Source of the DNA: Patescibacteria group bacterium | Lineage (GTDB): Bacteria; Patescibacteriota; Patescibacteriia; UBA10025; JAHIVO01 | DNA: 64,000 nt | NCBI GenBank assembly: GCA_041660605.1 | Contig: JBAZWB010000001.1 | Location: 686,503 to 750,502 of the forward strand | Reading direction: 5' to 3' | Shown: piece by piece, positions 4,326-29,921 of the stretch | How positions within the stretch are numbered: position 1 is the stretch's first letter | Layout of the letters: the number at the start of each line of letters is the position of its first letter | Program-made: the position numbers and the translations under genes | Notes under the pieces: generated by a model | What the model saw: only the letters and a program-made list of their open reading frames with translations | The model's database searches: none | Told to the model about the DNA's origin: nothing

Positions 4326-4369
4326 ATTTATGCCCAGCCTGAATAAATGGCTGCGCTTAAATATTTTGT

Positions 4370-6343: not shown

Positions 6344-6351
6344 AATAAAAT

Positions 6352-8012: not shown

Positions 8013-8016
8013 TATC

Positions 8017-8454: not shown

Positions 8455-8510
8455 GAAAATTTATAATAAATTTAAGAATTATAAATTAAGCATTATACAT
8501 TTTACATTAA

Positions 8511-9788
<1,278 letters not shown>

Positions 9789-13822: not shown

Positions 13823-15070
13823 ATGAATATTTGCATTTACGAGGACTCTGACCACGAAAAATTATATCCACTTGCCCTCACTAGACCGGTTTTTGATTTA
13901 AAATTCGGTTTTTTTACTTTATTGCAAAGATTGCTGAAATCAATTAAAACCACCGAAAAATTGCGAACTTCACTACTTTGCCGTGATTATCTGAAAAACA
14001 GAGTCAAAAAAGAAAATCCATCGGCTGCGATAAATAAAATTAATAAGGATCTGACTATTTTTTTAAACGGCCGGATGATATTAAGGGAGTCATTATTACG
14101 AAAATTAATTTCCTTAAAAAAGGATGCGATATTCGTAGATAATCAGATGATAATAGCGGCAAGACTGTCAGATGAAAATTTAAAACAAATTGACGTCAAG
14201 AATCCCGGAGAATCATTGAAAAAAATCAGAGCTCCAAGAATTAAAGTTAAGGCTCAGTTGATTGCCCATCTTTGGGAATTAATAACATTCAATGAGAAAT
14301 TTCTGGCCGATGATCTAAAGAACACCGGACTGCTGGGAAAAATCGAAGGCAATGTTTATCCTGGCGTTGACTATATTGAAAAAAAGAATATTTACATTGC
14401 AAAAAAATCCGTCATCAAATCCGGAACCGTGCTGGACGCTGAAAACGGGCCAATTTATATAGATGAATCAGCAATTATTGAACCGAATTGCACTATTGTC
14501 GGCCCGGCCTATATAGGAAAGAGTACAAAAATAAACGCCGGTGCCAAAATTCTTGCCAACACTTCGATCGGAGACTATTGCAGAATCGGCGGCGAAGTTG
14601 CTGAATCAATTTTTTATGGATATTCTAATAAACAGCACGACGGTTTTATCGGTCATTCGTACGTCGGTGAATGGTGCAATCTGGGCGCCAACACTAACAA
14701 CAGCGATTTAAAGAATAATTACTCCCCTATTGATATTGTTGAAAACGGAAAAAAGGTTAATACCGGCTTAATTCATTTTGGCTTTGTCATGGGCGATCAT
14801 TCAAAAACCGGCATCAGTACTATGATTAACAGCGGAACGGTAATAGGCGCTGGATGCAATCTTTATGGCGCTGGCTACCTCCCAAAATATCTCCCATCAT
14901 TCACTTGGCTGGATAATGGAAAAACTCCGGTTACTTACAATTTTTTAAAATTTTCCAAAACTGCCCACCTTGTTTGTCAAAGGCGTAAAAGTAAATTTTA
15001 TAAAACTGACGAAGCGATATTTTCAAACATTTTCAAACTAACCAAGATGGAAAGGGCTGATTATAAGTAG
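13823..15070 (+). CDS. sugar-phosphate nucleotidyltransferase with a C-terminal left-handed beta-helix (hexapeptide-repeat) domain, GlmU-like
   Basis: 415 aa. The C-terminal half is rich in [LIV]-G-x4 hexapeptide repeats (IGKSTKINAGAKILANTSIGDYCRIGGEVAESIF...). It is the first gene of the glycan locus. Confidence 0.65.
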   Translation: MNICIYEDSDHEKLYPLALTRPVFDLKFGFFTLLQRLLKSIKTTEKLRTSLLCRDYLKNRVKKENPSAAINKINKDLTIFLNGRMILRESLLRKLISLKKDAIFVDNQMIIAARLSDENLKQIDVKNPGESLKKIRAPRIKVKAQLIAHLWELITFNEKFLADDLKNTGLLGKIEGNVYPGVDYIEKKNIYIAKKSVIKSGTVLDAENGPIYIDESAIIEPNCTIVGPAYIGKSTKINAGAKILANTSIGDYCRIGGEVAESIFYGYSNKQHDGFIGHSYVGEWCNLGANTNNSDLKNNYSPIDIVENGKKVNTGLIHFGFVMGDHSKTGISTMINSGTVIGAGCNLYGAGYLPKYLPSFTWLDNGKTPVTYNFLKFSKTAHLVCQRRKSKFYKTDEAIFSNIFKLTKMERADYK

Positions 15071-15194: not shown

Positions 15195-16157
15195 ATGAAA
15201 AATGTATTAGTAACAGGTGGCGCCGGTTTTATAGGTTCGCATGTTGCAAAAAAACTGCTTGAACGCGGTGATCAGGTTATTATAGTTGATAATTTTAATG
15301 ATTATTATGATCCCAGCCTGAAAGAAGACCGTATAAAAATCTTGCTAAAAGACTTAAGTTTCAAGCTATACCGGACCGACATCGTAAATCTGGATGACCT
15401 GAAAAAAATATTTCAGAAAAACAAAATCGATGAAATCTGCCACCTAGCCGCCAGAGCCGGCGTACGTGCCTCTATTGCCAATCCCTTTATCTATCAGCAA
15501 TCCAATGACTTAGGAACTCTCAATCTTTTAGAGCTGGCGAAGGATTTTAAGATAAAGGATTTTGTCTTTGCTTCCAGCTCTTCGGTCTATGGAGGCAATG
15601 CCAAAATCCCATTCTCTGAATCAGATCCGGTTGACCATCCAATCTCCCCCTATGCGGCTACTAAAAAAGCTACGGAGGTTATGGCGCATGTCTATCACCA
15701 CTTATACGGCATTAACTGCACTGCCTTGCGATTTTTCACTGTTTGCGGTCCTTGGGGCAGGCCGGATATGGCTTTGTTCAAATTTACAGAAAAAATATTA
15801 GGCGGTAAACCAATTGATGTTTATAACAATGGAGACCATGAGCGGGACTTCACCTATATTGATGATATTGTTCAGGGTGTTGTGGCCGCGTTAGATAACC
15901 CTTTTCCATATGAAATAATTAATCTTGGTAATTCGCATACTGTAAATCTCAAGTATTTCATTGAATTAATTGAAAAGGAATTAAACAAAAAAGCAAAAAA
16001 GAACATGGTACCTTTGCAAGCTGGTGATGTGCACAAAACACACGCCGATATCAGTAAAGCCAAGAGATTGCTGGGATTTGAGCCCAAAACTAACATCGAA
16101 AAAACCGTTCATAATTTTATTAATTGGTATAAACAATATTATGGAATCAAAAATTAA
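15195..16157 (+). CDS. NAD-dependent epimerase/dehydratase, UDP-glucuronate 4-epimerase-like (extended SDR family)
   Basis: 320 aa. VLVTGGAGFIGSHVAKKLLERGDQVIIVDNF and YAATKKATEVMAHVY (YxxxK). Confidence 0.8.
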   Translation: MKNVLVTGGAGFIGSHVAKKLLERGDQVIIVDNFNDYYDPSLKEDRIKILLKDLSFKLYRTDIVNLDDLKKIFQKNKIDEICHLAARAGVRASIANPFIYQQSNDLGTLNLLELAKDFKIKDFVFASSSSVYGGNAKIPFSESDPVDHPISPYAATKKATEVMAHVYHHLYGINCTALRFFTVCGPWGRPDMALFKFTEKILGGKPIDVYNNGDHERDFTYIDDIVQGVVAALDNPFPYEIINLGNSHTVNLKYFIELIEKELNKKAKKNMVPLQAGDVHKTHADISKAKRLLGFEPKTNIEKTVHNFINWYKQYYGIKN

Positions 16158-17079
16158 GTACTCAATAGTTATCCCGGCATATAACGAGCAGGACGCTGTC
16201 GGTCCCCTACATCAAGAGATTAAAAACGCTATGGAAAAAATCGGTGATCCCTATGAAATCATTTTTATTGATGATGGTTCGTCTGACAAAACTTTTGAAC
16301 GGCTTAATTCTTTGATGCCCGTTAAAATCGTCAAGTTCAGAAAAAATTTCGGCCAGACGGCGGCGCTTGATGCCGGCATAAAAAATTCCCTGGGCGAAGT
16401 AATAATAATGCTGGACGCTGACGGCCAGAATCCTCCCTCGGAAATACCCAAGCTATTGGAAAAAATGAAAGAAGGATATGACGTTGTCTCCGGCTGGCGT
16501 TCAAAAAGAAAGGATACTTCAGCAAAAAAATTTGTTTCACGCGGTGCCAACCTTCTCAGGAAATTACTGGTTAATGACCAAATCCATGATTCCGGCTGTA
16601 CGCTGAAAGCCTATAAAAAAGAATGTTTCGAAGATATAGATCTGCAGGGGGAAATGCACAGATTCATCCCTGCCATTTTGCGCTGGCATGGTTTTAAAGT
16701 TACTGAAGTGCCTGTGGAACACCGCGCCAGGACTACAGGTACCACAAAATATAACTGGAAAAGAATATTGAAAGGCTTCATCGATATGATGTCCGTCTGG
16801 TTCTGGAGAAAATATTCAAATCGACCACTGCATCTTTTTGGCGGTCTGGGAATATTTATTGGTGGCACAGGGTTTGCTCTTGGATTATTCTTAGCGATTG
16901 GCCGTTTATTAGGATTATTTTCTCTGCAAAACAGGATTTGGCCTTTGGTAGCCGTATTTTTGATATTAGCCGGTATGCAGCTCTTTGTTTCAGGATTACT
17001 GGCTGACATTGCCGTAAAATCATATTACAGCGGGAAAAGAAGAGTTTACTACATTGAAAAAGTCATTTCCAGAGAATGA
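16141..17079 (+). CDS. GT2 glycosyltransferase, DPM1/ArnC-like polyprenyl-phosphate sugar synthase with C-terminal TM helices
   Basis: The start was refined to ATG at 16141 (MESKIKYSIVIPAYNEQDAV...), overlapping the epimerase stop. DAD motif (IIMLDADGQNPP) and two C-terminal TM helices, as in dolichol-P-mannose/undecaprenyl-P-sugar synthases. Confidence 0.8.
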   Translation: MESKIKYSIVIPAYNEQDAVGPLHQEIKNAMEKIGDPYEIIFIDDGSSDKTFERLNSLMPVKIVKFRKNFGQTAALDAGIKNSLGEVIIMLDADGQNPPSEIPKLLEKMKEGYDVVSGWRSKRKDTSAKKFVSRGANLLRKLLVNDQIHDSGCTLKAYKKECFEDIDLQGEMHRFIPAILRWHGFKVTEVPVEHRARTTGTTKYNWKRILKGFIDMMSVWFWRKYSNRPLHLFGGLGIFIGGTGFALGLFLAIGRLLGLFSLQNRIWPLVAVFLILAGMQLFVSGLLADIAVKSYYSGKRRVYYIEKVISRE

Positions 17080-18203
17080 AAATTTTGCTGCTAAATTATG
17101 AATTTCCACCACTAGGCGGCGGTGCCAGTCCGGTTAGCTATGATATTGCTCTCCGGCTATCCACGATCGGTAAATTCGATATTGACGTGGTTACTATGCA
17201 CTACCGCGGTCTGCCAAGAAAGGAAATTATTAACGAACATTTCACAATTTACCGGGTACCTTCGTGGCGCGCAAAAAAAGAAATTTGCCACCCCTGGGAG
17301 CAATTAACCTATCTGATCAGTGGTTTTTTCAAATGTCTTTCTCTCATCCACAAAAACAAATATAACCTTTGCTATTGCCATTTCATTATTCCCACCGGCG
17401 TTTTGGCGTATTTGTTAAAAATCTTATTTAAGCTCCCCTATATCATTACCAGCCATGGCAGCGATGTTATTAAATACAATCCCAGATTTAAAAGGATCTA
17501 TCCTCTGATTACCGGAGTTTGGAAAACGATTTTGAAAAATTCATTAATTATAACTACCCCATCAATTTTTTTGGCTAGGCAGATAAAAAATGTTTATCCA
17601 AAACTTGATTCAAACAAAATAAAAATTATTCCAAACGGTATAGAAAAAAATAAATTTTCTCCATTAAAAAAGGAAAAAACTATTTTACTAGTCACCAGAA
17701 TATTATTAAATAAAGGCGTCCAAGTTGTATTGGAAGCGGTAAAAGGAACTAACATAAATGATTGGAACATAATTATTGTAGGCGAAGGACCAGCACGAAA
17801 ACAGCTTGAAATATTAACTAGACATTATAAACTAGATAAAAAAGTTACCTTTTTAGGTTGGGTAAAAAATCCCAGTGAAAAACTACGAAATTTATATGGA
17901 AGCGCATCAATATTTGTCTTGCCTAGCTTTTTTGAAAATATGAATGTCACACTTTTAGAAGCAATGGCTTCTGGTTGTGCAATTCTAGCTACAAATGTAG
18001 GTGGTAATCCAGAAGTAATAGGGAGTGCTGGTATTCTTTTTTCACCAAGAAATCCTGCTGAACTAAGAAAAAAATTGCTAGATTTAATTAATAATGAAAA
18101 AAACCTTTCACTTTTCAAGCAGGCTTCTCGCATAAGATTTGAAAAATATTTTTCTTGGGAAATCATAATTCAAGAATACTTAAATGTTTTTTGTGAAAAA
18201 TAA
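17076..18203 (+). CDS. GT4 glycosyltransferase
   Basis: 375 aa. N-terminal LLLNYEFPPLGGGA and C-terminal E-x7-E region (FENMNVTLLEAMASGCAILATNVGGNPEVI). Confidence 0.8.
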   Translation: MKILLLNYEFPPLGGGASPVSYDIALRLSTIGKFDIDVVTMHYRGLPRKEIINEHFTIYRVPSWRAKKEICHPWEQLTYLISGFFKCLSLIHKNKYNLCYCHFIIPTGVLAYLLKILFKLPYIITSHGSDVIKYNPRFKRIYPLITGVWKTILKNSLIITTPSIFLARQIKNVYPKLDSNKIKIIPNGIEKNKFSPLKKEKTILLVTRILLNKGVQVVLEAVKGTNINDWNIIIVGEGPARKQLEILTRHYKLDKKVTFLGWVKNPSEKLRNLYGSASIFVLPSFFENMNVTLLEAMASGCAILATNVGGNPEVIGSAGILFSPRNPAELRKKLLDLINNEKNLSLFKQASRIRFEKYFSWEIIIQEYLNVFCEK

Positions 18204-19089
18204 TATTACGGACATTTCTATTGAATCTCAAATGAAAAACAAAATCTCTGACTATTTTTCATCAAAAGTTCTTCAATTAAAATTATTAAGGGAAACAGAT
18301 GTCTCGTATCTTTATCTGGCTGAACTAAGTAATATTAAAATTTTAGCAAAACAATATAAAAATATATCTATCAAGCACGAATATGAAAACCAATTATATA
18401 TATATACTATTATAAATGACCATTATCAGAATAAATTATTCAGGGTACCACGACCATTCTTTTTTTCTGAATCCGAAAATTTTTTCACTATGGAATATAT
18501 TCCCGATGCTAAAAACTTTTTAGATTTGCTGTTTATTCTTCCTCTTAATCAGGTACAACAACTGTCTCAAAAGGTAGGGCTTGCCTTATATGAATATCAT
18601 GTGTTACTCACGAAGTACCTAAGCCAGAAAAAAAAATCTATTTATACGGGTGATTCAATGCAGGAACTTTTCAAAACAAAAAAGGGATCTACTATTAAAA
18701 AAATTATAGACAAATTCCCGGAAAATACGACGTCAGTAATTTACAGGGATTTTACGCCAACTAATATAATGTTCCGCAACGATGAAATATATTTTATTGA
18801 TTTTCAAACGATTTGCTATACTGGCCCCTTTTTTTATGACTTAGCGCGTTTTCAAGATGTTACTAGAATATTTAGTTTTTTGAAGCATCCGTTCTCTTAT
18901 CTTTATCATAGAAAAACAATATTAATGATTCTAGACCAAATAGTACAGGGGTATAATGAAAAAAAATATGTTGATAGAAATTTATTAAAAATGGCATCCT
19001 TTATCCATCACAAAGAACATGCAATCATGAAGAATAAAAATAAATTTAATAAGTACATATTAAAGTTTTTATATTTAATTAATATTTAA
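18184..19089 (+). CDS. protein-kinase-like (aminoglycoside/choline-kinase fold) phosphotransferase
   Basis: 301 aa. Catalytic-loop-like YRDFTPTNIMF and DFG-like IYFIDFQ plus FFYDLARF. Weak but consistent with the APH/ChoK family. The true start may be the internal Met at ~18232. Confidence 0.45.
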   Translation: MFFVKNNITDISIESQMKNKISDYFSSKVLQLKLLRETDVSYLYLAELSNIKILAKQYKNISIKHEYENQLYIYTIINDHYQNKLFRVPRPFFFSESENFFTMEYIPDAKNFLDLLFILPLNQVQQLSQKVGLALYEYHVLLTKYLSQKKKSIYTGDSMQELFKTKKGSTIKKIIDKFPENTTSVIYRDFTPTNIMFRNDEIYFIDFQTICYTGPFFYDLARFQDVTRIFSFLKHPFSYLYHRKTILMILDQIVQGYNEKKYVDRNLLKMASFIHHKEHAIMKNKNKFNKYILKFLYLINI

Positions 19090-19091
19090 AT

Positions 19092-19847
19092 ATGGTAAAT
19101 AAAAGCTATCGTGACGGATTTATGACTGGCGCAACTAGCTACGAATCTATTACTGCGCGCAAACACATTTCACTAATATATAAACTGGAGCAGGATATTT
19201 TAAGCGATTTTTTCAAAAAGATTAATTCACATTCAAAAACTGTGCTTGATTTTGCGTGCGGCACTGGTCGGTGGACAATGTTTTTAGAAAAATATTTTCA
19301 TAAGGTTACCGGACTTGATATTTCCCCTAAGATGATTGAATTGGCTCAACAAAAATGTAAACAAACCAATTTTTATGTAGATGACATTACTGGCGATAAA
19401 AATGCTAATCTACACTTTAATGATGCTTTTGATGTTTTAACGGCTTTTAGATTTTATAAAAATGCGGAAAATGAACTACAAATAAACGCCACTAGAAGCT
19501 TACAAAAATTAGTCAAAAAAGGAGGATATTTTATATTTGATTTGCATTTAAATACATTTTCAATTATGGGTTTAATTGCATGTTTCATTAGAATAACCCA
19601 ATTATATAAATTGCTAAAAATAAATCCGCTAGCCGTTCGTACTATCTCACTTAGAAGAATTAGAAAAATATTTAAACATAGTGATTTCGAAATAATCGAT
19701 TATTTTGGGATGGGAATAGTACCCGGAAGACGAAATTTTACTTTATTACCGACTTCAACGTTAATGCCGTTTGAACGGTGGTTAAGCCAGCATAAAATAT
19801 TAAGAAATTTTTGCTATAATTTACTGGTGTTCGCTCAAAAAAAATAA
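19092..19847 (+). CDS. class I SAM-dependent methyltransferase
   Basis: 251 aa. Motif I VLDFACGTGRWTMFL, motif post-I GLDISPKMI, and LTAFRFY. Confidence 0.8.
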   Translation: MVNKSYRDGFMTGATSYESITARKHISLIYKLEQDILSDFFKKINSHSKTVLDFACGTGRWTMFLEKYFHKVTGLDISPKMIELAQQKCKQTNFYVDDITGDKNANLHFNDAFDVLTAFRFYKNAENELQINATRSLQKLVKKGGYFIFDLHLNTFSIMGLIACFIRITQLYKLLKINPLAVRTISLRRIRKIFKHSDFEIIDYFGMGIVPGRRNFTLLPTSTLMPFERWLSQHKILRNFCYNLLVFAQKK

Positions 19848-19852
19848 TTTTT

Positions 19853-20947
19853 ATGAATATTTTACATTTAATTGATCATGTCGGATATGGCGGTACTCAA
19901 ACAATTCTCAAAGAAATATTTGAAAATCAAATTAATGATAAAAGCATCTTCTATTATGCATTACGCAATAATGCAACTGCACATGTTGACATACATCATA
20001 ATAATGTTTTATTTTGTTCAAGTTATTCGAAATTCTCCCTTAAGCCATTGTTCGAAATATGCGGACTCGTAAAGAAATATAATATTCAGATACTTCATTG
20101 CCATCTTTTTAGATCACAGGTATTTGGCTGGTTAATCAAAAAATTCTTTAATCACCGACTATGCCTTGTTTTTCATGAACATGGCGAAATATTTAGAAAA
20201 AAATGGTGGTTTATTTTTTTTCTCAAAATAGCTAAACTCGATATTAATGGCTGGATAGCTGTTTCAGCCGCGACAAAAACAAAACTGATTGAAACTTCAA
20301 ATATACCTGCAAAAAAAATTTTTGTTCTTTATAACTTTGCTAATAGCAATAAATTTAATGAAAAAAATCTGCGTAATCTCAACAGATTTCAAATCAGATC
20401 AAATTATCAAATTCCTCAAACCGATTTTGTCATTGGATTTCTGGGACGCTTAGATGAAATAAAATCGCTACCAACATTAATAAAAGCTCTGCCATTATTA
20501 AAATTCCCATTTGTAACGATAGTGGTAGGACAAGGACCAGAACATCAACCATTAGTTACCTTAGCAGAAAAACTAAACATAAAAGATAAAATCCGATTTA
20601 TAAATTTCCAAAAAGATGTTCTGTTAATATATTCTATAATAGACATCCTTGTACTGCCTTCACGTTCCGAAGCAAGCCCAATGATATTTTATGAAAGTCA
20701 AATGCTAGGCGTCCCCATAATCGCAAGTGATGTACCAGCATTAAATGAACTTATACGTGACGGTGAAAATGGTTCACTTTTTCAGTATCAAAATAGTAAA
20801 ATGTTAGCTCAAAAAATCACTAAATTTTATTTAAATAAATCATTTTTGGTGCATATTAAAAAAAATTCTTTGATAAACGGAAAAAAATTTACTATTTCAA
20901 ATTTTATTAAGAATCTGAACGCAATTTATGAGCAAATCCAATCGTGA
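19853..20947 (+). CDS. GT4 glycosyltransferase
   Basis: 364 aa. C-terminal SRSEASPMIFYESQMLGVPIIASDVPALNELI (E-x7-E-like). Confidence 0.75.
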   Translation: MNILHLIDHVGYGGTQTILKEIFENQINDKSIFYYALRNNATAHVDIHHNNVLFCSSYSKFSLKPLFEICGLVKKYNIQILHCHLFRSQVFGWLIKKFFNHRLCLVFHEHGEIFRKKWWFIFFLKIAKLDINGWIAVSAATKTKLIETSNIPAKKIFVLYNFANSNKFNEKNLRNLNRFQIRSNYQIPQTDFVIGFLGRLDEIKSLPTLIKALPLLKFPFVTIVVGQGPEHQPLVTLAEKLNIKDKIRFINFQKDVLLIYSIIDILVLPSRSEASPMIFYESQMLGVPIIASDVPALNELIRDGENGSLFQYQNSKMLAQKITKFYLNKSFLVHIKKNSLINGKKFTISNFIKNLNAIYEQIQS

Positions 20948-21668
20948 GTATAGAAATTCTCACCTAGATCCAAAAATAGTCAACTATTACGAGCATACCG
21001 TGTATGGTCATGGCTCAAGCTATAGCCTTCTTTGGAATTTAGAAAAAAGTATTCTACTAAAAATATTTAAAAAGTATAATTTGCAAAATAATTCCACTAC
21101 GTATCTTGATTTTGCCTGCGGTACTGGCAGAGTAATTTCTTTTCTTGAAGATAAAGTGAGAAACTCTTTTGGTATAGATGTATCGCAGAACATGATTAAT
21201 CTCGCGCTACCCAAACTTCATCGCTCAAAACTTATGGTGGTCGATTTGGCATCTGACGATAAATTACTTGACGAAAAATACGATCTAATCACTGCTTTTC
21301 GATTTTTTCTGAATTCCCAGCCTGAACTACGTAAAACAGCAATGAATATTTTGGGTCAAAAATTATCCACCAATGGTTTGTTGATTTTTAATATTCATGG
21401 TAATACAATCTGCTATCGCTTCCCTATTGTAATTTTATACCGATTATTTGGTAAACCGCTCCAGCAAATGACATACTTTCAGGTAAAAAATCTTGTCCAT
21501 CAAAACGGCCTTAAAATAGTTGGGTATTATGGCGTGGGATTCATACCAAAATTTTTATACCCTATTTTTCCCAAAACATGGATAATGACATTTGAAAAAA
21601 TTTTGTCAAAGACATTATTAAAGTATTTATGCTTAGACATGATTTTTGTTTGTAAAAAAAATGAATAA
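20928..21668 (+). CDS. class I SAM-dependent methyltransferase; paralog of 19092..19847
   Basis: 246 aa. YLDFACGTGRVISFL, ITAFRFF and NIHGNT mirror LDFACGTGRW / LTAFRFY / DLHLNT of the upstream MT. Confidence 0.8.
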   Translation: MSKSNREYRNSHLDPKIVNYYEHTVYGHGSSYSLLWNLEKSILLKIFKKYNLQNNSTTYLDFACGTGRVISFLEDKVRNSFGIDVSQNMINLALPKLHRSKLMVVDLASDDKLLDEKYDLITAFRFFLNSQPELRKTAMNILGQKLSTNGLLIFNIHGNTICYRFPIVILYRLFGKPLQQMTYFQVKNLVHQNGLKIVGYYGVGFIPKFLYPIFPKTWIMTFEKILSKTLLKYLCLDMIFVCKKNE

Positions 21669-22488
21669 ATATTTATCATTCAGAAAAAATAAATATTTTG
21701 TTAGAAATGACCTTGAATCATTTTTAATATTTTATCGATTTTTTTTATTCCGCCCCTTTTTAATCGGACATTTCTTACGCCTGTCACTTAAGTTTTTTGA
21801 TTCCGTTTTTTGCGCTATAATTAAAATTTTTTTCGTATTACGTTTTAATTTTCTATTGCCAGCAAAAAAACTCAATGCAAATTTTTTAATTTCCCGGCGT
21901 GGAGGTGGCCTGCAAAAAAATTTATGCATTATTGAAAAGAGTAATTCTCATTATAAACTAAATAAAATATTTTCGGATGATAATGCATTTAAACGAGAAC
22001 AAAAATTTTTAAACCTGTACTATGCCAAATCGGATAAAATTCTCCTACCTGAATATCGAATTTATGAAAAAAAAATTGTATATACCTTCCTAAAATCTGA
22101 ATCATTAAAATCATTAATCAGGCGCGGTTGTATTACCAAACCACGGGCATTACAAATTTATAAAAAAATCTTTTCTGCTATGACCCCTCTTTACAAAAAG
22201 AATGATAATTATCAGCATGGTGACTTGGCTACTGAAAATATTTATCCTGTTAATGATTTTATTTATTTAATCGATTTTGCAGATTCAGCTTTTCTTCCGC
22301 CATTTTACGATACGATCTTCCTGCTCTACCGGATTGTATCAGAGTTTGACCGTATAACTTACTCTTACTTCATTAGTAATGCCTTAGCGATTTTTAATTC
22401 ATTACAATTAAAAATAAAATTGTCGCGAGGCGATATTATAAATTTTGATCAAACATATAAACACAATTTAAAATTAAAATATGGATAA
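21646..22488 (+). CDS. protein-kinase-like phosphotransferase; paralog of 18184..19089
   Basis: 280 aa. QHGDLATENIY (HxD catalytic-loop-like), IYLIDFADSAF (DFG-like) and PFYDTIFLLYR, matching IYFIDF / PFFYDLARF of the first copy. Confidence 0.45.
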   Translation: MFVKKMNKYLSFRKNKYFVRNDLESFLIFYRFFLFRPFLIGHFLRLSLKFFDSVFCAIIKIFFVLRFNFLLPAKKLNANFLISRRGGGLQKNLCIIEKSNSHYKLNKIFSDDNAFKREQKFLNLYYAKSDKILLPEYRIYEKKIVYTFLKSESLKSLIRRGCITKPRALQIYKKIFSAMTPLYKKNDNYQHGDLATENIYPVNDFIYLIDFADSAFLPPFYDTIFLLYRIVSEFDRITYSYFISNALAIFNSLQLKIKLSRGDIINFDQTYKHNLKLKYG

Positions 22489-23635
22489 ATCAATTATTGA
22501 CCATAATAAAATTAAGGTATGTTTTGTACAAGCACATGTCTACCCTTTTTTTGATAAAAAAATTAATGCTACTATCGGCGGAGCAGAATTGCAATTATAT
22601 TTAATCGGTACAGAAATTGCTAAAGATAACGGATACGAAGTTTCATATTTAGTTGGCGATTACGGCCAGCCAAAAACAGTTCAGCACGGTAATATAAGCT
22701 TATTCAATGGTATTCCAACTAAAAAAGGACTTTCATTATTGAAAAAAATTAGTTCAGCATTAAAAATATACAGAATCCTAGGAAGAATTAACGCCGATAT
22801 TTACATCTCATCAGGCGCTAACAGCGTTATTGGTCTTGTATCTTATTTTTGCCTCCACAAAGGTAAGATTCATATTTATCGGACATCACATAAAAATGGT
22901 TGCAATAAAGTGTATATCAATCAAAATGGGTTAACCGGAAAAATATTCCAATACGGTTTAGAACATGCCAATTTCGTAATTACTCAGTCAAAAGAACATC
23001 AAATCCTTCTTAAGCAGCATCATAATCGAAATTCAAAGGTATTTAGAAATATTTTTCCGATTCAAACACAAAAAAATGGACTTAAGAAGAAAACCATCCT
23101 TTGGGTAGCCAGGATTGCGCACTGGAAACAACCAGAATTATTTATTGAGTTAGCTAAATTATTTCCTAGTGAAAAATTTGTAATGGTTTGCGCTACTAGC
23201 AAAGAAGATGTTCATTATCAAAATAAAATTCAATCAATGATTAAACAGCAATCAAATATTAAGCTCTATAATCAAGTTCCCTATGACCAAGTCCAAAAAA
23301 TTTTTAACGAAGCTAAAATATTTGTCAATACCTCCATGGCAGAGGGCTTTCCAAATACATTTTTGCAGGCTGGCGTTGGTAAGACGCCTATCGTATCTCT
23401 AAATGTCAATCCAGATGGATTTATCGAACAATATAATTGTGGCTATTTTTGCCAAAATAATTTTAATAATATGGTATTAAAAATTAGAATATTGCTGAAG
23501 CAGAGAGATGATTGGCAGAAAAAAAGTGAGAATCTTTATAATTATGTCAGGAACAATCATGATCTATCAAGAAATGTAGCCTATCTAAAACAATTGATCA
23601 GGTATTTTATCTCCGAGTCAAAAAGTCTAAAATAA
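22481..23635 (+). CDS. GT4 glycosyltransferase
   Basis: 384 aa. C-terminal NTSMAEGFPNTFLQAGVGKTPIVSLNVNPDGFIE (E-x7-E-like region). Confidence 0.7.
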   Translation: MDKSIIDHNKIKVCFVQAHVYPFFDKKINATIGGAELQLYLIGTEIAKDNGYEVSYLVGDYGQPKTVQHGNISLFNGIPTKKGLSLLKKISSALKIYRILGRINADIYISSGANSVIGLVSYFCLHKGKIHIYRTSHKNGCNKVYINQNGLTGKIFQYGLEHANFVITQSKEHQILLKQHHNRNSKVFRNIFPIQTQKNGLKKKTILWVARIAHWKQPELFIELAKLFPSEKFVMVCATSKEDVHYQNKIQSMIKQQSNIKLYNQVPYDQVQKIFNEAKIFVNTSMAEGFPNTFLQAGVGKTPIVSLNVNPDGFIEQYNCGYFCQNNFNNMVLKIRILLKQRDDWQKKSENLYNYVRNNHDLSRNVAYLKQLIRYFISESKSLK

Positions 23636-23640
23636 TCCTC

Positions 23641-24432
23641 ATGGAAAAAATTTTGATTTCAATAATAAATATAATTAATATAATCAGGGATTTCACTAAC
23701 TGGCCTTTAGTAATCCTAAACTATTTACACATACGAAAAGCAGTTACTCTAAAACATCGCAATGGTTTGCATTTTTTTTGCCATAACCGGGCTCACTCAA
23801 AAATAATACAGGAAATGTTCCAAGGAATGATTTACAATAAGCACTTAATTGATCAAATAGGCCAAACATTACATAAAAAAACTATTATTGATATAGGAGC
23901 GCATGTGGGGAGTTTTTCCTTTTGGTTTGATTTTCATTGCCCTGGTAATACTTTCTATTTGTATGAGCCCGACAAAAATACATTTGATATATTACAAAAA
24001 AATGTTTGGCTGAATTATAAAAAAAAATTTCACATTTTTAACATCTGCGTCGCCTATAAATCAGGAATTGTTACATTTTATTCTACGTCAAGCAAAGGTC
24101 AAACTCAATCTTCATCTATACTTCACCGATCTGCTAATGAAGATAAATACTCTATCAATGCGAAAACGTTAATTGACATTATTACAGAAAATAAAATAAC
24201 GCAGGTAGATCTAGTAAAAATGGATTGCGAGGGTGCGGAATTTGATATTATACTTCAAGCACCGACTCGACTTTGGGCAATAGTTAAGGCAATACTTTTT
24301 GAATACCATGATGATATTTCGGGTAAGTCACACGAACAACTTGTTAAATCATTAAAGCCATTTTATAATACTATAGTTGTTCATCCGGCGCGATATAATA
24401 AATTTCGTGGCACAATTTTCGCTAAAAATTAA
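23641..24432 (+). CDS. FkbM-family methyltransferase
   Basis: 263 aa. IIDIGAHVGSFSFWF (FkbM motif I) and C-terminal LFEYHDDISGKSHEQL. Confidence 0.75.
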   Translation: MEKILISIINIINIIRDFTNWPLVILNYLHIRKAVTLKHRNGLHFFCHNRAHSKIIQEMFQGMIYNKHLIDQIGQTLHKKTIIDIGAHVGSFSFWFDFHCPGNTFYLYEPDKNTFDILQKNVWLNYKKKFHIFNICVAYKSGIVTFYSTSSKGQTQSSSILHRSANEDKYSINAKTLIDIITENKITQVDLVKMDCEGAEFDIILQAPTRLWAIVKAILFEYHDDISGKSHEQLVKSLKPFYNTIVVHPARYNKFRGTIFAKN

Positions 24433-24447
24433 AAATTATTAAAAATA

Positions 24448-25233
24448 ATGTGGTTTTTAAAAAAAATTAAAACAATAATGAAATCACTTAAGAGCAAAGT
24501 AATCCCTGATTTTATTAGGTTAAAATTTGATGCTGAAGAATTTAGTATTACTAAATTTGTCGAATTTGCGTCAAAACAAATCGCACCTACCGATAAAATT
24601 TTAGACGCAGGTGCCGGTTCCTGTCCATACAAAAAATATTTTAACCATGCAAGTTACGAATCTACCGATTTTGAAAACATTTTCGATAAATCTTCAAAAA
24701 ATAAGCATACATTCATCTGCAGTTTAGACAACATCCCAAAATCAGATGAATCTTATGATGCTATTCTAAATACCCAAGTGTTGGAGCATGTCGAATATCC
24801 CCAAAAAGTAATTAAAGAATTTTTTCGTATACTCAGACCTGGTGGTAAATTGTTCCTTACTGCACCCCAAGGATGGGGCATTCATGGTGATCCTTACCAT
24901 TTTTTTAATTTCACAAAATATGGCCTAAAATCACTTTTTATTAATGCCGGATTTACAATAAAATTTATTAAACCAAGAGGTGGAATTTTTTGGTATTTGG
25001 GGAAACGTATTAAAATGCTCCCACTTTATATTTTCTTACAGCATATCATATTAAAAAAAGATGGTGCGACAAAGTTCAAACCTACGCTTACTGGTTTTTT
25101 GTTATTACCATTTTATATTTTGTCTATACCAATCTGCAGTTTATTAATTCCTTTGCTATTTTTTTATCTTGACAAGCTTGACAAAAAGCAAGATTTTACA
25201 TTGGGGTATGCTTGTTATTGTGAAAAAAAATAG
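24448..25233 (+). CDS. class I SAM-dependent methyltransferase
   Basis: 261 aa. ILDAGAGSCPYKKYF, ILNTQVLEHVEYPQKVIKEFFRILRPGGKLFLT (MT type-11-like). Confidence 0.75.
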   Translation: MWFLKKIKTIMKSLKSKVIPDFIRLKFDAEEFSITKFVEFASKQIAPTDKILDAGAGSCPYKKYFNHASYESTDFENIFDKSSKNKHTFICSLDNIPKSDESYDAILNTQVLEHVEYPQKVIKEFFRILRPGGKLFLTAPQGWGIHGDPYHFFNFTKYGLKSLFINAGFTIKFIKPRGGIFWYLGKRIKMLPLYIFLQHIILKKDGATKFKPTLTGFLLLPFYILSIPICSLLIPLLFFYLDKLDKKQDFTLGYACYCEKK

Positions 25234-25379
25234 TTTATATAAAAGCGATAAAAACAGACGTATTAAATTATTTATTAAATACAACTGCCCCAGAAACCTG
25301 GCCCAAGATAGGCACTATTATACTTGAATTTCACGATGATATTACAAAGGAACCGCATGGCCAGTTGATCAAACAATAA
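25224..25379 (+). pseudogene. decayed C-terminal fragment of an FkbM-family methyltransferase
   Basis: Manual translation of this short ORF (flanked by stops) gives ...WPKIGTIILEFHDDITKEPHGQLIKQ*. This aligns with the C-terminus of 23641..24432 (WAIVKAILFEYHDDISGKSHEQLVKS). No start codon or N-terminal domain is present. Confidence 0.55.
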
Positions 25380-25465
25380 TATTATTATATAATAATATTA
25401 TAATTATACCGAACAGAATGTATAAACTTCGTGGAACTACTTATGCTTGAAACTAATCAATAAAT

Positions 25466-26116
25466 ATGAATATTAGTAAATATTTTAAATATTTGATTCC
25501 ACCCATGACTTTAATTTTTCATACTAAGAAAACTGGATTATATAGATATAAAAACTACAGTCATTATAAAAAAGTTCAAGTTGAGGGAAATATTAAAAAA
25601 ATTAATCAATCATGGGTTGTTGAAAAAAATATTAAGTATTTATCAAGTTTTTTAAAAAATGAAGTGCCAAATCTTAAATTTGGCATCTGTCATGGTACTA
25701 GACGTGGGAAAGAACAAGAATGGTTCAGTAAATATTTAAGTATAAATGTTATCGGTACTGAAATTTCTCCTACCGCAACACAATTCCCAAATACAATACA
25801 ATGGGATTTTCATGATGTAAAACCCGAGTGGATTAATAATATCGATTTTATTTATAGTAATTCTTTTGATCACTCTTATAAACCAAAGGAATGTTTAGAC
25901 GCATGGATGAGTTGTATAAAAAAAAGTGGGATGCTAATTCTAGAATGGACTACTGGACACATAGGGGTCGACGAACTCGATCCTTTCGGTGCAACTTTAG
26001 ATGCCTACAAAATACTAATAACTGAAAAATATAAAATTAAAAAAATTCTAAAAGCTCCTAGTAATCGTTTATGGAAATTACATAATAGATATTATTTCAT
26101 AATTTCACATAAGTAA
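25466..26116 (+). CDS. putative methyltransferase-like protein (weak)
   Basis: 216 aa. FGICHGTRRGKEQEWFSKYLSINVIGTEISP loosely resembles a Rossmann MT motif I/II. Uncertain. Confidence 0.4.
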   Translation: MNISKYFKYLIPPMTLIFHTKKTGLYRYKNYSHYKKVQVEGNIKKINQSWVVEKNIKYLSSFLKNEVPNLKFGICHGTRRGKEQEWFSKYLSINVIGTEISPTATQFPNTIQWDFHDVKPEWINNIDFIYSNSFDHSYKPKECLDAWMSCIKKSGMLILEWTTGHIGVDELDPFGATLDAYKILITEKYKIKKILKAPSNRLWKLHNRYYFIISHK

Positions 26117-26184
26117 TTATTTACTAATATTTTTTTAAAATAGACTTAATTATCAGATAAAAAAATTATAATAAGTTTAAACTA

Positions 26185-26219
26185 AAAAATTCAGAGTTTC
26201 ACTTAAACTCTGAATTTTT
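26185..26219. terminator. bidirectional rho-independent terminator between convergent genes
   Basis: Perfect 15-bp inverted repeat AAAAATTCAGAGTTT / AAACTCTGAATTTTT with a 5-nt loop. A/T runs on both sides give a U-tract on either strand. Confidence 0.55.
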
Positions 26220-26265
26220 ACTGAAAACAATATACAAAATTTAATTTCCTTAATATAAAATCGAA

Positions 26266-27573
26266 TTAATTTATCTGTTTACTCTTAAGCTGAAAAAAAT
26301 ATTTTAATGAGTATTGAGGATAATGTCGAAAAAAGTATATTTCGTATAATATCATTTTAAATCCATATCCAATTACCGTAGCAACTGCACCACCCATTAT
26401 ACCCATCCGGGGAATCAATACGATATCAAATATTATATTTATCGCAAATTGACCAATGTTAACTATTTGAGAAAAACGAAATTTTTTTAAGGAAATAATA
26501 ATAGGGATGTAAAAAGTATTATATGCAGCCAGTAATGCTCCAAAAATTAGCATCTTTAATATAGGGACGGATTGAGAATACTCACTTTTATAGACTAAAC
26601 GAATTAACACTGAAATGTTAAAATATAATAAAAATAAACCAAAGATAATAATTAATAAAAGTTTCCATCGTTTACTAAAAAGGTAATTGGATATTTTTTT
26701 TGAATTCTTAATATTCGTCGCGATGAATGGGGTAAAATAACTACCAAGAATAAATGTACTCATTACTAAACCCTTAAAAACTTCGTAACTCAAATTATAA
26801 ACTCCAATTTCATGAAAAGACACATAATGTCGTAACACTAAATTATCGCCCCAATTAACTAAATAAACTCCAACTGAACCAAACATTATCCAGCTGATAT
26901 ACCCTATAGTTTCTTTAAATAATTTTTTATCAATAACAAACGGGAATAACATGCTGTAATCTGTACGACGCAGGAATATGGGAAAAAATATCAATAAAAG
27001 TATGGCCGAGACAAGATACGAGTAAAATATATTGTTTAAACTTAATTGATGAAAAATGAACAGAAGCAAAACGGATAGAACATTAAATAAACCGAAGAAA
27101 AAATCGATCCAGGAATGCTTTAACCTCATATTCAAAGCTAAGAAAAGATTTCCGATAAACCGATATAACGTTAGCCCGGTATAGGCCAAAAAAAGTGAAA
27201 ATAATTCTAAACGCGTTATGCCCGCAAAATTCTGCAGATACTTGCCTAATACCAAATTTACTAAAATATATATGCTAATCGAAATAATCAAAAAAATGAT
27301 CTGCACTGAAAAAGACTTATTAATTTTTCCTGATAAGTTTCTTTCCTGATTCGCGTTCACAATAAAAGGTGTTTGCGCAGACGCTATTAGCAGACTTGAA
27401 AAGAAAAAAATTATAGTTTTTGACAACGAATAACCGCCAAATAAGCTAGGAGATAAAAATTTCGCTATCAGAAGCGGGGCCAATAGTGAAAATCCCTGTC
27501 CCACTAGTTTAATAAGCGAAAAACTTAACATCATCTTCCCCAGCTTAAATTCTTTTATTACTCGACGAATCAT
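26266..27573 (-). CDS. Wzx-like oligosaccharide flippase (MOP/polysaccharide-biosynthesis family)
   Basis: 435 aa, ~12 TM. N-terminal LIKLVGQGFSLLAPLLIAKFLSPSLFGGYSL is typical of Wzx/RfbX-type proteins. Confidence 0.7.
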   Translation of the reverse strand: MIRRVIKEFKLGKMMLSFSLIKLVGQGFSLLAPLLIAKFLSPSLFGGYSLSKTIIFFFSSLLIASAQTPFIVNANQERNLSGKINKSFSVQIIFLIISISIYILVNLVLGKYLQNFAGITRLELFSLFLAYTGLTLYRFIGNLFLALNMRLKHSWIDFFFGLFNVLSVLLLFIFHQLSLNNIFYSYLVSAILLLIFFPIFLRRTDYSMLFPFVIDKKLFKETIGYISWIMFGSVGVYLVNWGDNLVLRHYVSFHEIGVYNLSYEVFKGLVMSTFILGSYFTPFIATNIKNSKKISNYLFSKRWKLLLIIIFGLFLLYFNISVLIRLVYKSEYSQSVPILKMLIFGALLAAYNTFYIPIIISLKKFRFSQIVNIGQFAINIIFDIVLIPRMGIMGGAVATVIGYGFKMILYEIYFFRHYPQYSLKYFFQLKSKQIN

Positions 27574-27586
27574 AATTCTTTAATTA

Positions 27587-29827: not shown

Positions 29828-29921
29828 TAATTTTTGTTATAATAAGAATTTCCAAAATTGTAATTTTAAATTGCTCAAAAATTCAACGTTTTGTTAACAT
29901 AAAAATATCATAATTTCGAGT

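Follow-up and report, generated by a model that had tools for sequence, protein, structure and literature searches.

The gene order GT4 glycosyltransferase (GT4-0), kinase (KinA) and SAM-dependent methyltransferase (MT-A), usually followed by one further GT4, is a rare but evolutionarily conserved unit, which is present in the window analyzed here (the whole stretch of 64,000 nucleotides) and recurs in other genomes. In the explanation that we favour, with moderate confidence in its parts taken together, the region forms the central part of a surface-glycan assembly locus of the flippase (Wzx) type in an uncultivated Patescibacteria genome, the cassette is a translationally coupled functional unit, its kinase and methyltransferase act as a coupled pair on the sugar that the partner GT4 attaches, decorating it, and a second methyltransferase (MT-B) is an old or fast-evolving paralog of MT-A. 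The cassette probably both phosphorylates and methylates a sugar; methyl phosphate as the specific product, proposed by analogy with known enzymes, is tentative.

Gene organization of the locus

The locus contains a GT2, several GT4s, GT-C/PMT_2-like membrane proteins, a Wzx, rml genes and an AdoHcy hydrolase, which gives it a glycan-assembly context (Table 1). The six open reading frames from KinA to GT4-B, originally predicted as nearly contiguous or overlapping genes of the forward strand, were confirmed in this arrangement.

Table 1. Genes of the glycan locus discussed in the text.
Gene product	Position	Strand	Basis
GlmU-like nucleotidyltransferase	13823-15070		
GT2, polyprenyl-phosphate glycosyltransferase-like (ArnC/PgfS/AglJ type)	16141..17079	+	NCBIfam
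GT4-0, GT4 glycosyltransferase	17076..18203	+	Pfam Glycos_transf_1, E 7e-34
KinA, soluble kinase of predicted APH/choline-kinase fold	18184..19089	+	Pfam APH, 28.5 bits
MT-A, class I SAM-dependent methyltransferase	19092..19847	+	Pfam Methyltransf_25, E 1e-16
GT4-A	19853..20947	+	Pfam Glycos_transf_1, E 3e-34
MT-B, diverged paralog of the MT-A subfamily	20928..21668	+	Similarity to MT-A
KinB, orphan kinase-like protein	21646..22488	+	Sub-threshold matches and motifs
GT4-B	22481..23635	+	Pfam Glycos_transf_1, E 1.4e-15
FkbM-type methyltransferase	23641-24432	+	Pfam
Methyltransf_11 methyltransferase	24448-25233	+	Pfam
Wzx-type (Polysacc_synt) flippase	26266..27573	-	Pfam PF01943, E 4.9e-8

The GT2, whose start follows the public gene call for L001, matches the NCBIfam models for ArnC-type enzymes (E 2.7e-51) and for PgfS (E 1.2e-46) without reaching the equivalog cut-off of either, and its homologs (39-50% identity) are located upstream of the cassette in 10 other loci. 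Methyltransferase genes also lie downstream of the cassette elsewhere: Methyltransf_11 and FkbM genes in L007 and Methyltransf_11 genes in L003. The Wzx-type flippase is the likely export route for a lipid-linked glycan. In both archaeal loci, L005 and L024, a homolog with 38% identity to it sits at the equivalent place, and a scan of window ORFs revealed no ABC-2/Wzm-Wzt genes.

The conserved cassette

The order of the cassette is kept, with overlapping or near-abutting genes, in all 24 other loci long enough to tell, which originate from Planctomycetota, a Methanosarcinales archaeon and sediment metagenomes and represent 19 KinA lineages at 90% identity or 13 at 60%. In the informative loci among these the three genes follow one another directly on the same strand; the spacing ranges from -83 to +6 nt between GT4-0 and KinA (in the window the 3' end of GT4-0 overlaps the KinA start by 20 nt) and from -4 to +6 nt between the kinase and methyltransferase genes. 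An ortholog of MT-A directly follows the kinase gene in 19/19 loci where both are complete, and in nine of them the kinase stop and the methyltransferase start overlap. One further locus encodes a natural GT4::kinase fusion (P0004), with the methyltransferase gene beginning 3 nt after it; the GT4 half of this fusion is 55% identical to GT4-0 (E 3e-146). The pairing of kinase, methyltransferase and glycosyltransferase is recurrent and conserved, as originally predicted, and far more strongly than one sequence could reveal, in 24 loci plus the fusion. A point against the coupling is a divergent member of the KinA family, P0017, which stands alone, without GT or MT neighbours.

The limits first drawn around the unit, which joined KinA to GT4-A, were misplaced: synteny and the natural fusion identify GT4-0 as the conserved partner of KinA, and wherever a locus includes sequence upstream of the KinA homolog, the gene directly before it is a GT4-0 homolog (35-53% identity). 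The closest solved relative of GT4-0 is BshA, a generic match. GT4-A and GT4-B are two alternative GT4 types found downstream of MT-A in other genomes: homologs of GT4-A (29-35% identity) follow MT-A in L002, L003, L016 and L023, and those of GT4-B (31-36%) in L004, L005, L010, L011, L015, L017, L018, L019, L022, L024 and L026.

KinA

The product of the kinase gene scores above the Pfam APH cut-off (28.5 versus 23.2 bits) and belongs to a rare family: an exhaustive search among 1.84 billion representative proteins retrieved 33 relatives at E<=1e-3, with about 17 at E≤1e-10. Its confident AlphaFold2 model (pLDDT 91.6) predicts an APH/choline-kinase fold, and the original description of a small kinase of this type holds for KinA. 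The top PDB matches of the model in Foldseek are PsiK, methylthioribose (MTR) kinase, LicA, corramycin phosphotransferase and AmiN (E 1.7e-9 to 1e-7, TM 0.5-0.67, sequence identity 11-19% for the APH/ChoK kinases). The catalytic Asp/Lys pair, the loss of which had been considered, is retained: K56, D189, N194 and D206 do not vary across 15 members of the family.

The nearest structural neighbours of KinA phosphorylate free small molecules, and all of the best matches (PsiK, 5-methylthioribose kinase, LicA, APHs) are small-molecule kinases. This would fit a precursor pathway, in which KinA would act as an anomeric sugar-1-kinase (MTR kinase, AmgK) or an alcohol kinase (LicA), MT-A would methylate the precursor or its nucleotide-activated form (phosphoethanolamine to phosphocholine, or O/N-methylation of an NDP-sugar), and the adjacent GT4 or another transferase would use the product. 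The weak NCBIfam match of KinA to AmgK (E 2.6e-4), the match of the methyltransferase family profile to phosphoethanolamine N-methyltransferases (E 1.5e-8, within the generic range) and the GlmU-like nucleotidyltransferase encoded in the window are in line with it. However, no nucleotidyl- or cytidylyltransferase, LicD or TagF-type transferase is conserved beside the cassette in other loci, the GT4::kinase fusion is hard to square with an intervening activation step, and a shared APH-superfamily fold is no guide to the substrate; overall, a precursor pathway appears unlikely. The phosphocholine-type route suggested at the outset is unsupported: the loci examined have no LicC or LicD-type genes alongside the cassette.

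The methyltransferases MT-A and MT-B

The original prediction described the genes from KinA to GT4-B as a tandemly duplicated three-gene module. As judged from their sequences, which are 31% identical across 255 aa (E 2e-34), MT-A and MT-B are true paralogs. Both carry the motifs LDFACGTGR and [LI]TAFRF[YF], and of the predicted N-x-H-x-NT motif they share H-x-N-T, its first position being occupied by D in MT-A but by N in MT-B. MT-B retains 38 of the 71 positions that are at least 95% conserved in MT-A orthologs. In a neighbor-joining tree it is the outgroup to all of these orthologs, to which it is 28-34% identical, and no gene of its type was found in other cassette loci, so that it is known only from this genome.

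The duplication does not extend to the other genes. The similarity between GT4-A and GT4-B (22% over 130 aa, E 2e-3) is that of generic GT4 enzymes, at the superfamily level only, and KinA and KinB share IY[FL]IDF and PF(F)YD, as predicted, with a resemblance limited to the catalytic loop, the metal-binding Asp and the "PFYD" segment. They align over 92 aa (28%, E 1e-3), and KinB matches 35 columns of the KinA family profile with an hhalign probability of 33%, which suggests co-membership of the kinase-like superfamily rather than demonstrable duplication. At the DNA level the two triplets have no repeat other than 23 nt encoding the SAM-binding motif; this and the outgroup position of MT-B indicate that no recent tandem duplication of a three-gene block took place. 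The two triplets as diverged copies of one module were rejected, only the methyltransferases being clear paralogs and KinB being related at the level of motifs.

Proposed pathway

In the pathway that we favour, the partner GT4 would put a sugar onto the lipid-linked glycan at the cytoplasmic face of the membrane, and KinA, beside or fused to this GT4, would phosphorylate one of the hydroxyls of that sugar with the gamma-phosphate from ATP. MT-A would then methylate the product with SAM, preferably forming a methyl phosphate ester, as WbdD and O7 ORF6 do, or alternatively modifying a neighbouring hydroxyl. The following GT4 and the flippase would carry on assembly and export. The sequence of MT-A points to a generic enzyme of class I and does not tell which acceptor atom it methylates. 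To our knowledge, the only well-understood biological role of methyl phosphate is chain termination coupled to export. Since a coiled-coil ruler is lacking and the window ORFs scanned include no ABC transporter that has a cap-binding module, this role is not applicable here.

The kinase and the methyltransferase might instead make two independent decorations, a free phosphomonoester on one sugar and an O-methylated sugar hydroxyl, and be inherited together only because both tailor the same repeat unit. O-methyl sugars are far commoner than methyl phosphates, hydroxyl methylation is clearly a theme of a locus carrying at least three further methyltransferases, and the methyltransferase has no specific similarity to WbdD. 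We nevertheless consider independent decorations improbable, given the invariable adjacency and frequent start/stop overlap of the two genes, the rank of the methyltransferase as the best conserved cassette gene (orthologs 40-54% identical), and the formation of methyl phosphate by both known glycan-locus pairs of kinase and methyltransferase (PMC3482155, PMC11231755).

The putative second pair

Along with the coupled decoration by KinA and MT-A, MT-B and KinB may form a second, lineage-specific pair set between the two alternative downstream GT4 types, plausibly installing a second decoration of the same type; there may be two distinct modified residues, as originally proposed. The KinB reading frame starts at TTG 21646, public gene calls starting at ATG 21661, and overlaps both neighbouring genes. 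KinB, probably a membrane-anchored kinase-like protein, has a hydrophobic N-terminal segment (KD19 hydrophobicity up to 2.05, residues 53-71). Its tentative assignment as a kinase draws on sub-threshold matches and on the motifs H191-G-D193..N198, ID210F and PPFYD222.

Module B may also lack a functional pair, KinB being a decayed or non-catalytic remnant or a membrane protein with chance motifs. KinB is below every Pfam and NCBIfam cut-off, was the only member of its kind found in the indexed database, has no homolog in 26 related loci, scores only 1 bit above the maximum of 1000 shuffles (9.9 versus 8.9 bits), and its single-sequence structure model is unusable. Set against this are an intact 280-codon frame in DNA of 30% GC, packed between and overlapping its neighbours, three colinear catalytic motifs spaced as in KinA, a plausible G-rich loop, beta3 Lys and alphaC Glu, and matches to RIO1, APH, Bud32 and PknE that all fall on one catalytic segment, leaving little probability for a non-catalytic KinB. 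It is least probable that KinA and/or KinB are regulatory or glycoprotein/peptide-modifying protein kinases rather than sugar kinases: although the KinA-family catalytic loop (consensus KDFKPSN) matches that of Ser/Thr protein kinases, the family's sequence matches in the PDB are PKA, PknB and MAP2Ks, the sole PDB match of KinB is PknE (E 0.014), and Foldseek matches include lanthipeptide kinases and PRPK/Bud32, the loop Lys is not conserved, 6 of 15 members, KinA of the window among them, having Thr or Ser instead, the C-lobe is of APH type with an invariant D219-x-x-R-F motif, and the strict coupling to GT4 and MT has no parallel in regulatory kinases.

Comparison with known systems

WbdD and ORF6 of Klebsiella pneumoniae O7 provide direct experimental precedents for a sugar that is both phosphorylated and methylated (PMC3482155, PMC11231755). 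In WbdD of Escherichia coli O9a and K. pneumoniae O3, a kinase phosphorylates a glycan sugar and a methyltransferase methylates the phosphate (PMC3482155). Like the cassette, WbdD pairs a protein-kinase-like kinase with a SAM methyltransferase of class I and has a GT4 (WbdA) as its working partner, and its domain order, methyltransferase then kinase, is the gene order of module B. WbdD is, however, a bifunctional O-antigen chain terminator, a single polypeptide with a C-terminal coiled-coil ruler, whereas here the genes are separate and lack a coiled coil; it belongs to an ABC-transporter pathway with a transporter recognising the cap, in contrast to the Wzx-type flippases here. Sequence similarity to WbdD was not detected for either the kinases or the methyltransferases, WbdD is absent from the Foldseek top 50 of the KinA model, and the KinA fold matches APH/ChoK rather than Src-like kinases.

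The APH/choline-kinase small-molecule kinases (LicA, 5-methylthioribose kinase, PsiK, AmiN, APH(9)) match KinA in overall fold and catalytic motifs, but the KinA family is a separate rare clade locked to GT4 and MT in glycan loci, and partner genes of the APH/ChoK pathways (LicC/LicD, methionine salvage, antibiotic clusters) were not found in the cassette loci examined. In Clostridioides difficile Type A and Pseudomonas aeruginosa b-type flagellin, a GT, a phosphoryl transfer and a SAM methyltransferase (FtaA-D) produce a sugar-phosphate-methylated moiety, the GT and phosphotransferase being fused in the P. aeruginosa pathway (bioRxiv 10.64898/2026.02.12.704994). FtaA-D rely on a CDP-activated amino acid and a TagF-like CDP-alcohol phosphotransferase, unlike the ATP-dependent APH-fold kinase predicted here, and no cytidylyltransferase or TagF-like gene accompanies the cassette in this locus.

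ORF6 of K. pneumoniae O7 is a terminator whose N-terminal methyltransferase-kinase makes methyl phosphate (PMC11231755). This giant protein of an ABC-transporter pathway comprises several domains, namely MT, kinase, CBM and coiled coil, together with two GT2 modules, whereas the cassette consists of stand-alone genes in the order kinase then methyltransferase and has GT4 partners instead of GT2. The nearest structure to the ORF6 kinase domain is the APH-fold amicoumacin kinase AmiN (PMC11231755), which is also among the top matches of KinA (rank 10, TM 0.64), and the ORF6 kinase is covalently joined to glycosyltransferase modules, as is the kinase in the GT4::kinase fusion.

Gene Organization of the Region

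The window, derived from a MAG of an uncultivated Patescibacteria (CPR) bacterium, is a large glycan-biosynthesis region. Six ORFs in it encode two kinase-like proteins (KinA and KinB), two methyltransferases (MT-A and MT-B) and two GT4 glycosyltransferases (GT4-A and GT4-B), with the coordinates and the tight packing on the forward strand that had been predicted; the motifs quoted in the original prediction were also found in the proteins. Pfam searches recognized the GT4 domain Glycos_transf_1 in the upstream GT4-0, in GT4-A and in GT4-B (117.2, 118.5, and 57.7 bits, respectively; cut-off 26.4) and classified MT-A (61.7 bits) and MT-B (36.3 bits) as class I SAM-dependent methyltransferases (Methyltransf_25/11/23, cut-off 27). 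Both methyltransferases carry DFACGTG, a GxGxG-type SAM motif.

Genes of the cassette region and large hydrophobic proteins of the window
Feature	Coordinates	Strand	Remarks
GT4-0	17076-18203	+	upstream GT4, partner of KinA
KinA	18184-19089	+	ORF
MT-A	19092-19847	+	ORF
GT4-A	19853-20947	+	ORF
MT-B	20928-21668	+	ORF
KinB	21646-22488	+	ORF, TTG start; ATG at 21661 in public gene calls
GT4-B	22481-23635	+	ORF
Large very hydrophobic protein	10211-11953	-	
Large very hydrophobic protein	12040-13707	-	
Large very hydrophobic protein	27587-29827	-	
Large very hydrophobic protein	29922-33050	+	
Large very hydrophobic protein	36342-37952	+	

The six genes had been interpreted as two tandem copies of a kinase-methyltransferase-GT4 module. 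Pairwise alignment identified the methyltransferases as clear paralogs (31% identity over 255 residues, E 2e-34), whereas the other two pairs are not demonstrable copies: KinA and KinB share 28% identity (E 1e-3) only in a 92-residue stretch that includes the catalytic segment, and GT4-A and GT4-B share 22% over 130 residues (E 2e-3), a generic GT4 likeness. The sole notable DNA repeat found is a 23-nt match encoding the LDFACGTG SAM-binding motif. Given the uneven similarity of the pairs and the restriction of the DNA repeat to these 23 nt, the three-gene block did not arise by recent tandem duplication. The boundaries of the modules also had to be redrawn, as the conserved unit differs from the predicted triplets and the GT4 partner of KinA is GT4-0.

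The Conserved GT4-Kinase-Methyltransferase Cassette

The KinA-family profile, scanned against GTDB genomes and JGI metagenomes, identified 24 further loci, to which the contig of the family member P0017 adds one (L008); synteny was read by tblastn of the window proteins against these loci. The predicted association of kinase, methyltransferase and glycosyltransferase proved recurrent, but with the upstream GT4. A GT4-0-type gene lies directly 5' of the kinase gene in every locus with upstream sequence, and an MT-A ortholog lies directly 3' of it in every locus with downstream sequence, the single exception being P0017, the most divergent member, which stands alone. The MT-A orthologs, 40-54% identical, are the best conserved genes of the cassette. 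They are usually followed by a further GT4, of the GT4-A type in 4 loci and of the GT4-B type in 11. The distances between genes are short or negative (-83 to +6 nt between GT4 and kinase, -4 to +6 nt between kinase and methyltransferase), a spacing indicative of co-transcription and, in the case of overlapping genes, of translational coupling.

When clustered at 90% identity the KinA homologs fall into 19 groups, and at 60% they still fall into 13; the sample is therefore not dominated by near-identical contigs. Besides Patescibacteria, the hosts are members of Pirellulales, Phycisphaerales and Sedimentisphaerales, another Planctomycetota MAG and one Methanosarcinales archaeon. The region thus contains a rare conserved cassette of a GT4, an APH-fold kinase, a methyltransferase and a further GT4 that is common to two domains. 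Its companions elsewhere include the same GT2 as in the window, PMT_2-type GT-C proteins, Methyltransf_11 and FkbM methyltransferases, and LPG_synthase_TM proteins.

In one member of the KinA family, P0004 (663 aa), the GT4 and the kinase are naturally fused. The GT4 half of this protein is 55% identical to GT4-0 (E 3e-146) and a mere 24% identical, over 120 residues, to GT4-A. At the locus of the fusion (L027) an epimerase gene precedes P0004, and a methyltransferase gene, located 3 nt further on, is followed by two GT4 genes. Farther 3', at positions 6326-11253 of this locus, are genes for an asparagine-synthase-type amidotransferase, a 566-aa double methyltransferase, a TylF-type O-methyltransferase and a sulfotransferase-like protein, a gene content that points to heavy glycan tailoring in this organism.

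The archaeal locus L005 is flanked by genes for a methanogenesis-marker-16-like protein and a CcmF/NrfE-type heme lyase, which supports an archaeal origin and speaks against mis-binning. The archaeal loci L005 (Methanosarcinales archaeon UBA261) and L024 share with window positions 16141-29827 an extended collinear cluster (GT2, GT4, kinase, methyltransferase, GT4-B-type glycosyltransferase, Wzx flippase) with protein identities of 29-51%, and L005 additionally encodes a protein homologous to the window's membrane protein of 746 aa. This collinearity suggests that the whole glycan module may have moved between domains.

KinA and Its Family

In public databases KinA is labelled as "phosphotransferase" (NCBI) or "Bud32" (JGI), the full JGI/IMG label being "tRNA A-37 threonylcarbamoyl transferase component Bud32", and KinB is a "hypothetical protein." The kinase-like nature predicted for both proteins was borne out by HMM search for KinA, which scores 28.5 bits with Pfam APH (PF01636, cut-off 23.2), and not for KinB, which remains under every curated threshold. 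The APH threshold is also passed by the family members P0003, P0008, and P0017.

The family is real yet rare. An exhaustive HMMER search of 1.84 billion cluster representatives yielded 33 relatives of KinA at E≤1e-3, 17 at E≤1e-10 and 14 at E≤1e-30. It was exposed by this search alone and not by indexed ones: in the word-indexed database KinA, KinB and the KinA-family profile retrieved no more than the query genome and a single divergent member.

The catalytic Asp/Lys pair, K56 (ATP-binding) and D189, is invariant in the alignment of 15 KinA-family members, as are the second catalytic residue N194, the metal-binding D206 (the DFG equivalent) and the APH-type motif D219-x-x-R222-F223-x-D. A missing Asp/Lys pair, which would have spoken against the prediction, is thus not what the family shows. 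The confident AlphaFold2 model built from the family alignment (pLDDT 91.6, pTM 0.88) is a compact bilobal kinase with an APH-type helical C-lobe and without an extended coiled coil. Its best matches among solved structures in Foldseek are PsiK, 5-methylthioribose kinase, LicA, corramycin phosphotransferase, AmiN and APH(9), with a probability of 1.00 for PsiK, 5-methylthioribose kinase, LicA, AmiN and APH(9); AmiN (6sui) is within the top ten, with TM 0.64 and E 3e-8. The closest structural neighbors of the modelled KinA are thus small-molecule kinases of the APH/choline-kinase type. PDB matches of the family profile by sequence are confined to Ser/Thr protein kinases and, within these, to the catalytic loops. 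Given the fold, the family and the glycan-locus context, the Bud32 label is almost certainly a misannotation.

P0017 (L008, 10001-10873), with 27% identity the most divergent full-length member, is located outside any glycan cassette, between a BNR/aBig_2 protein gene and small unknown ORFs, with glycoside hydrolase 3 and sugar-binding protein genes nearby. Some family members may therefore act on different substrates.

The MT-B/KinB Pair

Comparison of the window proteins with the related loci revealed an MT-B-type or KinB-type gene in no other locus, and the best match of KinB in the 26 related loci had an E value of 0.04. Of the 71 positions conserved to at least 95% among MT-A orthologs, MT-B retains 38, yet it branches outside all of these orthologs (28-34% identity, vs. 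40-54% for MT-A); it is an old or a fast-evolving paralog and not a recent in situ copy. The MT-B and KinB genes sit exactly between GT4-A and GT4-B, representatives of the two GT4 types that are alternatives after MT-A elsewhere, and the pair therefore looks like an insertion into, or an expansion of, the standard cassette. MT-B and KinB constitute a lineage-specific second methyltransferase/kinase-like pair.

KinB aligns with the KinA-family profile over 35 columns (hhalign probability 33%), and its HMM score (9.9 bits) is only slightly above the maximum reached by 1000 shuffled sequences (8.9). With the curated models it scores 17.3 for RIO1 (22 needed) and 14.8 for APH (23.2 needed), and far below the thresholds of the Bud32 models. 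All its weak matches (RIO1, APH, Bud32, and PknE) fall on one segment, PknE aligning over the part with the catalytic motifs. Three kinase motifs (H-x-D-x4-N, metal-binding D and APH "D") are present there in canonical order and with KinA-like spacing: the catalytic loop H191-G-D193..N198 (Y187-R-D189..N194 in KinA), the metal-binding Asp in I-D210-F (I-D206-F) and the APH-type motif PPFY-D222 (PFFY-D219). Inspection by eye also showed a G-rich loop N-terminal to these motifs, together with candidates for the beta3 Lys and the alphaC Glu. The indexed database and the 26 related loci provided no homologs to align, and the single-sequence AlphaFold2 model has a pLDDT of 47.5.

Residues 1-85 of KinB (21646-21900) contain a strongly hydrophobic segment, some 70 residues long, that is rich in Phe, Leu and Arg (KD19 up to 2.05). 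It is predicted as a single long helix even in the poor model (with a pLDDT of about 70 there) and has no counterpart in KinA and its family. This segment may be a membrane anchor, and KinB is probably a membrane-anchored, orphan kinase-like protein.

Locus Context and Export Route

Two stretches on the reverse strand of the window (3135-8012 and 40812-45416) contain dTDP-rhamnose genes (RmlA, RmlD, and RmlB types) and epimerases, together with two genes of the UDP-glucose/GDP-mannose dehydrogenase family; the glycan or glycans produced by this region may thus contain rhamnose and uronic acids. The window also encodes a MurA-like protein, a GlmU-like enzyme, an ArnC/PgfS-type GT2 and, in all, at least nine GT4 and GT2 glycosyltransferases. 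Three further methyltransferase genes are located directly 3' of the six ORFs. SAM-dependent methyltransferase genes near the cassette start at 19092, 20928, 23641, 24448, and possibly 25466, and beside this locus of at least five such genes lies a gene for S-adenosyl-L-homocysteine hydrolase (8511-9767, reverse strand), which may recycle the methylation by-product locally.

In addition to MurJ, the window encodes two separate Wzx-type flippases (26266 and 39011); the presence of two such flippases suggests that two glycan pathways lie next to each other. ABC-2, ABC_tran and Wzm-Wzt genes were absent from the window ORFs scanned, as were ABC exporters from the cassette neighbors scanned in L003, L005, L007, L015, and L023. 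Pfam searches gave no match for four of the five large hydrophobic proteins (536-1042 aa) and DUF6541 only for the fifth; the 746-aa protein weakly resembles the flippase-activity-associated Agl23. All five are probably GT-C-type glycosyltransferases or polymerases, and PMT_2 proteins are encoded at the equivalent position in Planctomycetota loci. The GC content is 0.27-0.31 in positions 18000-30000, comprising the cassette, the extra methyltransferases, Wzx and large membrane proteins, vs. 0.38-0.46 in the flanks; this marked drop would fit a glycan island that was acquired horizontally or evolves fast.

Proposed Function of the Cassette

The proposed function builds on the established gene order, family membership, catalytic residues, modelled fold, synteny and fusion; we infer a glycan substrate, phosphorylation before methylation and the phosphate as methyl acceptor. 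The partner GT4 would place a sugar on the lipid-linked glycan, and KinA and MT-A would act on this sugar as a coupled pair. KinA would phosphorylate it first, and MT-A would then put a methyl group onto the phosphate to give methyl phosphate, after which the next GT4 and the flippase would take over. We give an even chance to phosphorylation plus methylation at the glycan level by this pair. Methyl phosphate as the specific product, suggested by analogy with known modifiers, is a more tentative assignment. Similarly tentative is the wider proposal that GT4-0, KinA and MT-A constitute an unrecognised mobile glycan-capping unit, which would add methyl phosphate or another phospho-methyl group to flippase-exported glycans in Patescibacteria, Planctomycetota and Methanosarcinales, with KinB and the duplicated methyltransferase providing a second mark.

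KinA could instead be a free-sugar or amino-alcohol kinase of a precursor-level pathway, with the methyltransferase acting on the precursor. Small-molecule kinases lead the KinA fold search, and weak similarities to AmgK and PEAMT point in the same direction; the GT4::kinase fusion, however, and the lack of a conserved nucleotidyltransferase or LicD/TagF-type transferase by the cassette argue against this pathway, which we consider unlikely. Two independent decorations, a free phosphate and an O-methyl sugar, are unlikely to the same degree, and a non-functional KinB is less probable still. A protein-kinase role of KinA, suggested by its Ser/Thr-kinase-like catalytic loop, is highly improbable in view of the APH-type C-lobe and of the loop Lys, which is variable in the family.

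If the cassette is such a mobile glycan-capping unit, methyl phosphate would be used outside ABC-transporter chain termination and outside Proteobacteria, a new glycan-kinase family would be physically coupled to its own glycosyltransferase and, in this genome, the unrelated-looking KinB would have been recruited to a duplicated methyltransferase for a second mark. With a split, GT4-coupled version in flippase loci of ultra-small Patescibacteria, of Planctomycetes and of a methanogen-related archaeon, both the chemistry expected on poorly known cell surfaces and the contexts of such caps would become broader. The cassette and the fusion also provide an annotation rule for genes labelled "phosphotransferase," "Bud32," or "hypothetical," and the cassette is a small testable three-enzyme system.

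Comparison with Known Systems

To our knowledge, glycan capping with methyl phosphate by a kinase/methyltransferase pair has been described solely for a few enterobacterial O-antigens. The enterobacterial caps are made by fused enzymes with a coiled-coil ruler and gate export by the ABC transporter. Two examples have been established by experiment. The kinase/SAM-methyltransferase WbdD of Escherichia coli O9a and Klebsiella pneumoniae O3 adds methyl phosphate to a glycan sugar (PMC3482155), as does the N-terminal methyltransferase-kinase part of K. pneumoniae O7 ORF6, the kinase domain of which is nearest to AmiN and is covalently joined to GT modules (PMC11231755).

WbdD chains were absent from the PDB sequence matches listed for the two kinases, the two methyltransferases and the family profiles, each listing comprising the best 60 if there were more, and from the Foldseek top 50 for the KinA model. 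WbdD-family membership was consequently rejected: these matches, obtained for the kinases and methyltransferases as individual sequences and as profiles, revealed no sequence homology. WbdD is one polypeptide with a C-terminal coiled-coil ruler, whereas the proteins here are encoded by separate genes (251 to 301 aa) and the KinA model lacks a coiled coil; WbdD acts with an ABC transporter carrying a cap-binding module, in contrast to the flippase route found here. The cassette acts like a modifier of the WbdD/O7 type yet, because of these differences and the lack of detected homology, is no member of the WbdD family. The missing ruler and the presence of a flippase in place of such a transporter also make a chain-terminator role unlikely, and decoration of the repeat unit or of the terminus is more plausible. 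The likeness to O7 ORF6, comprising the AmiN-like fold of KinA, the adjoining class I methyltransferase and the coupling to a GT in the fusion, is an architectural resemblance only.

Two other models lack their required partner genes and were rejected. For the phosphocholine (Lic) pathway, the resemblance of KinA to LicA is at the fold level only, and LicC/LicD-type genes were absent from the window ORFs and cassette neighbors scanned. The Fta pathway of Clostridioides difficile, with a CDP-activated donor (CDP-amino acid) and a TagF-like transferase, is a loose analogy only; TagF-type genes were absent from the cassette neighbors scanned in L003, L005, L007, L015, and L023.

Overall, the cassette belongs to a known kind, the glycan kinase/methyltransferase modifiers, and its components are individually ordinary. 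It differs from the enterobacterial modifiers in the split into separate genes, the coupling to GT4, the location in flippase-type loci and the sharing across domains.
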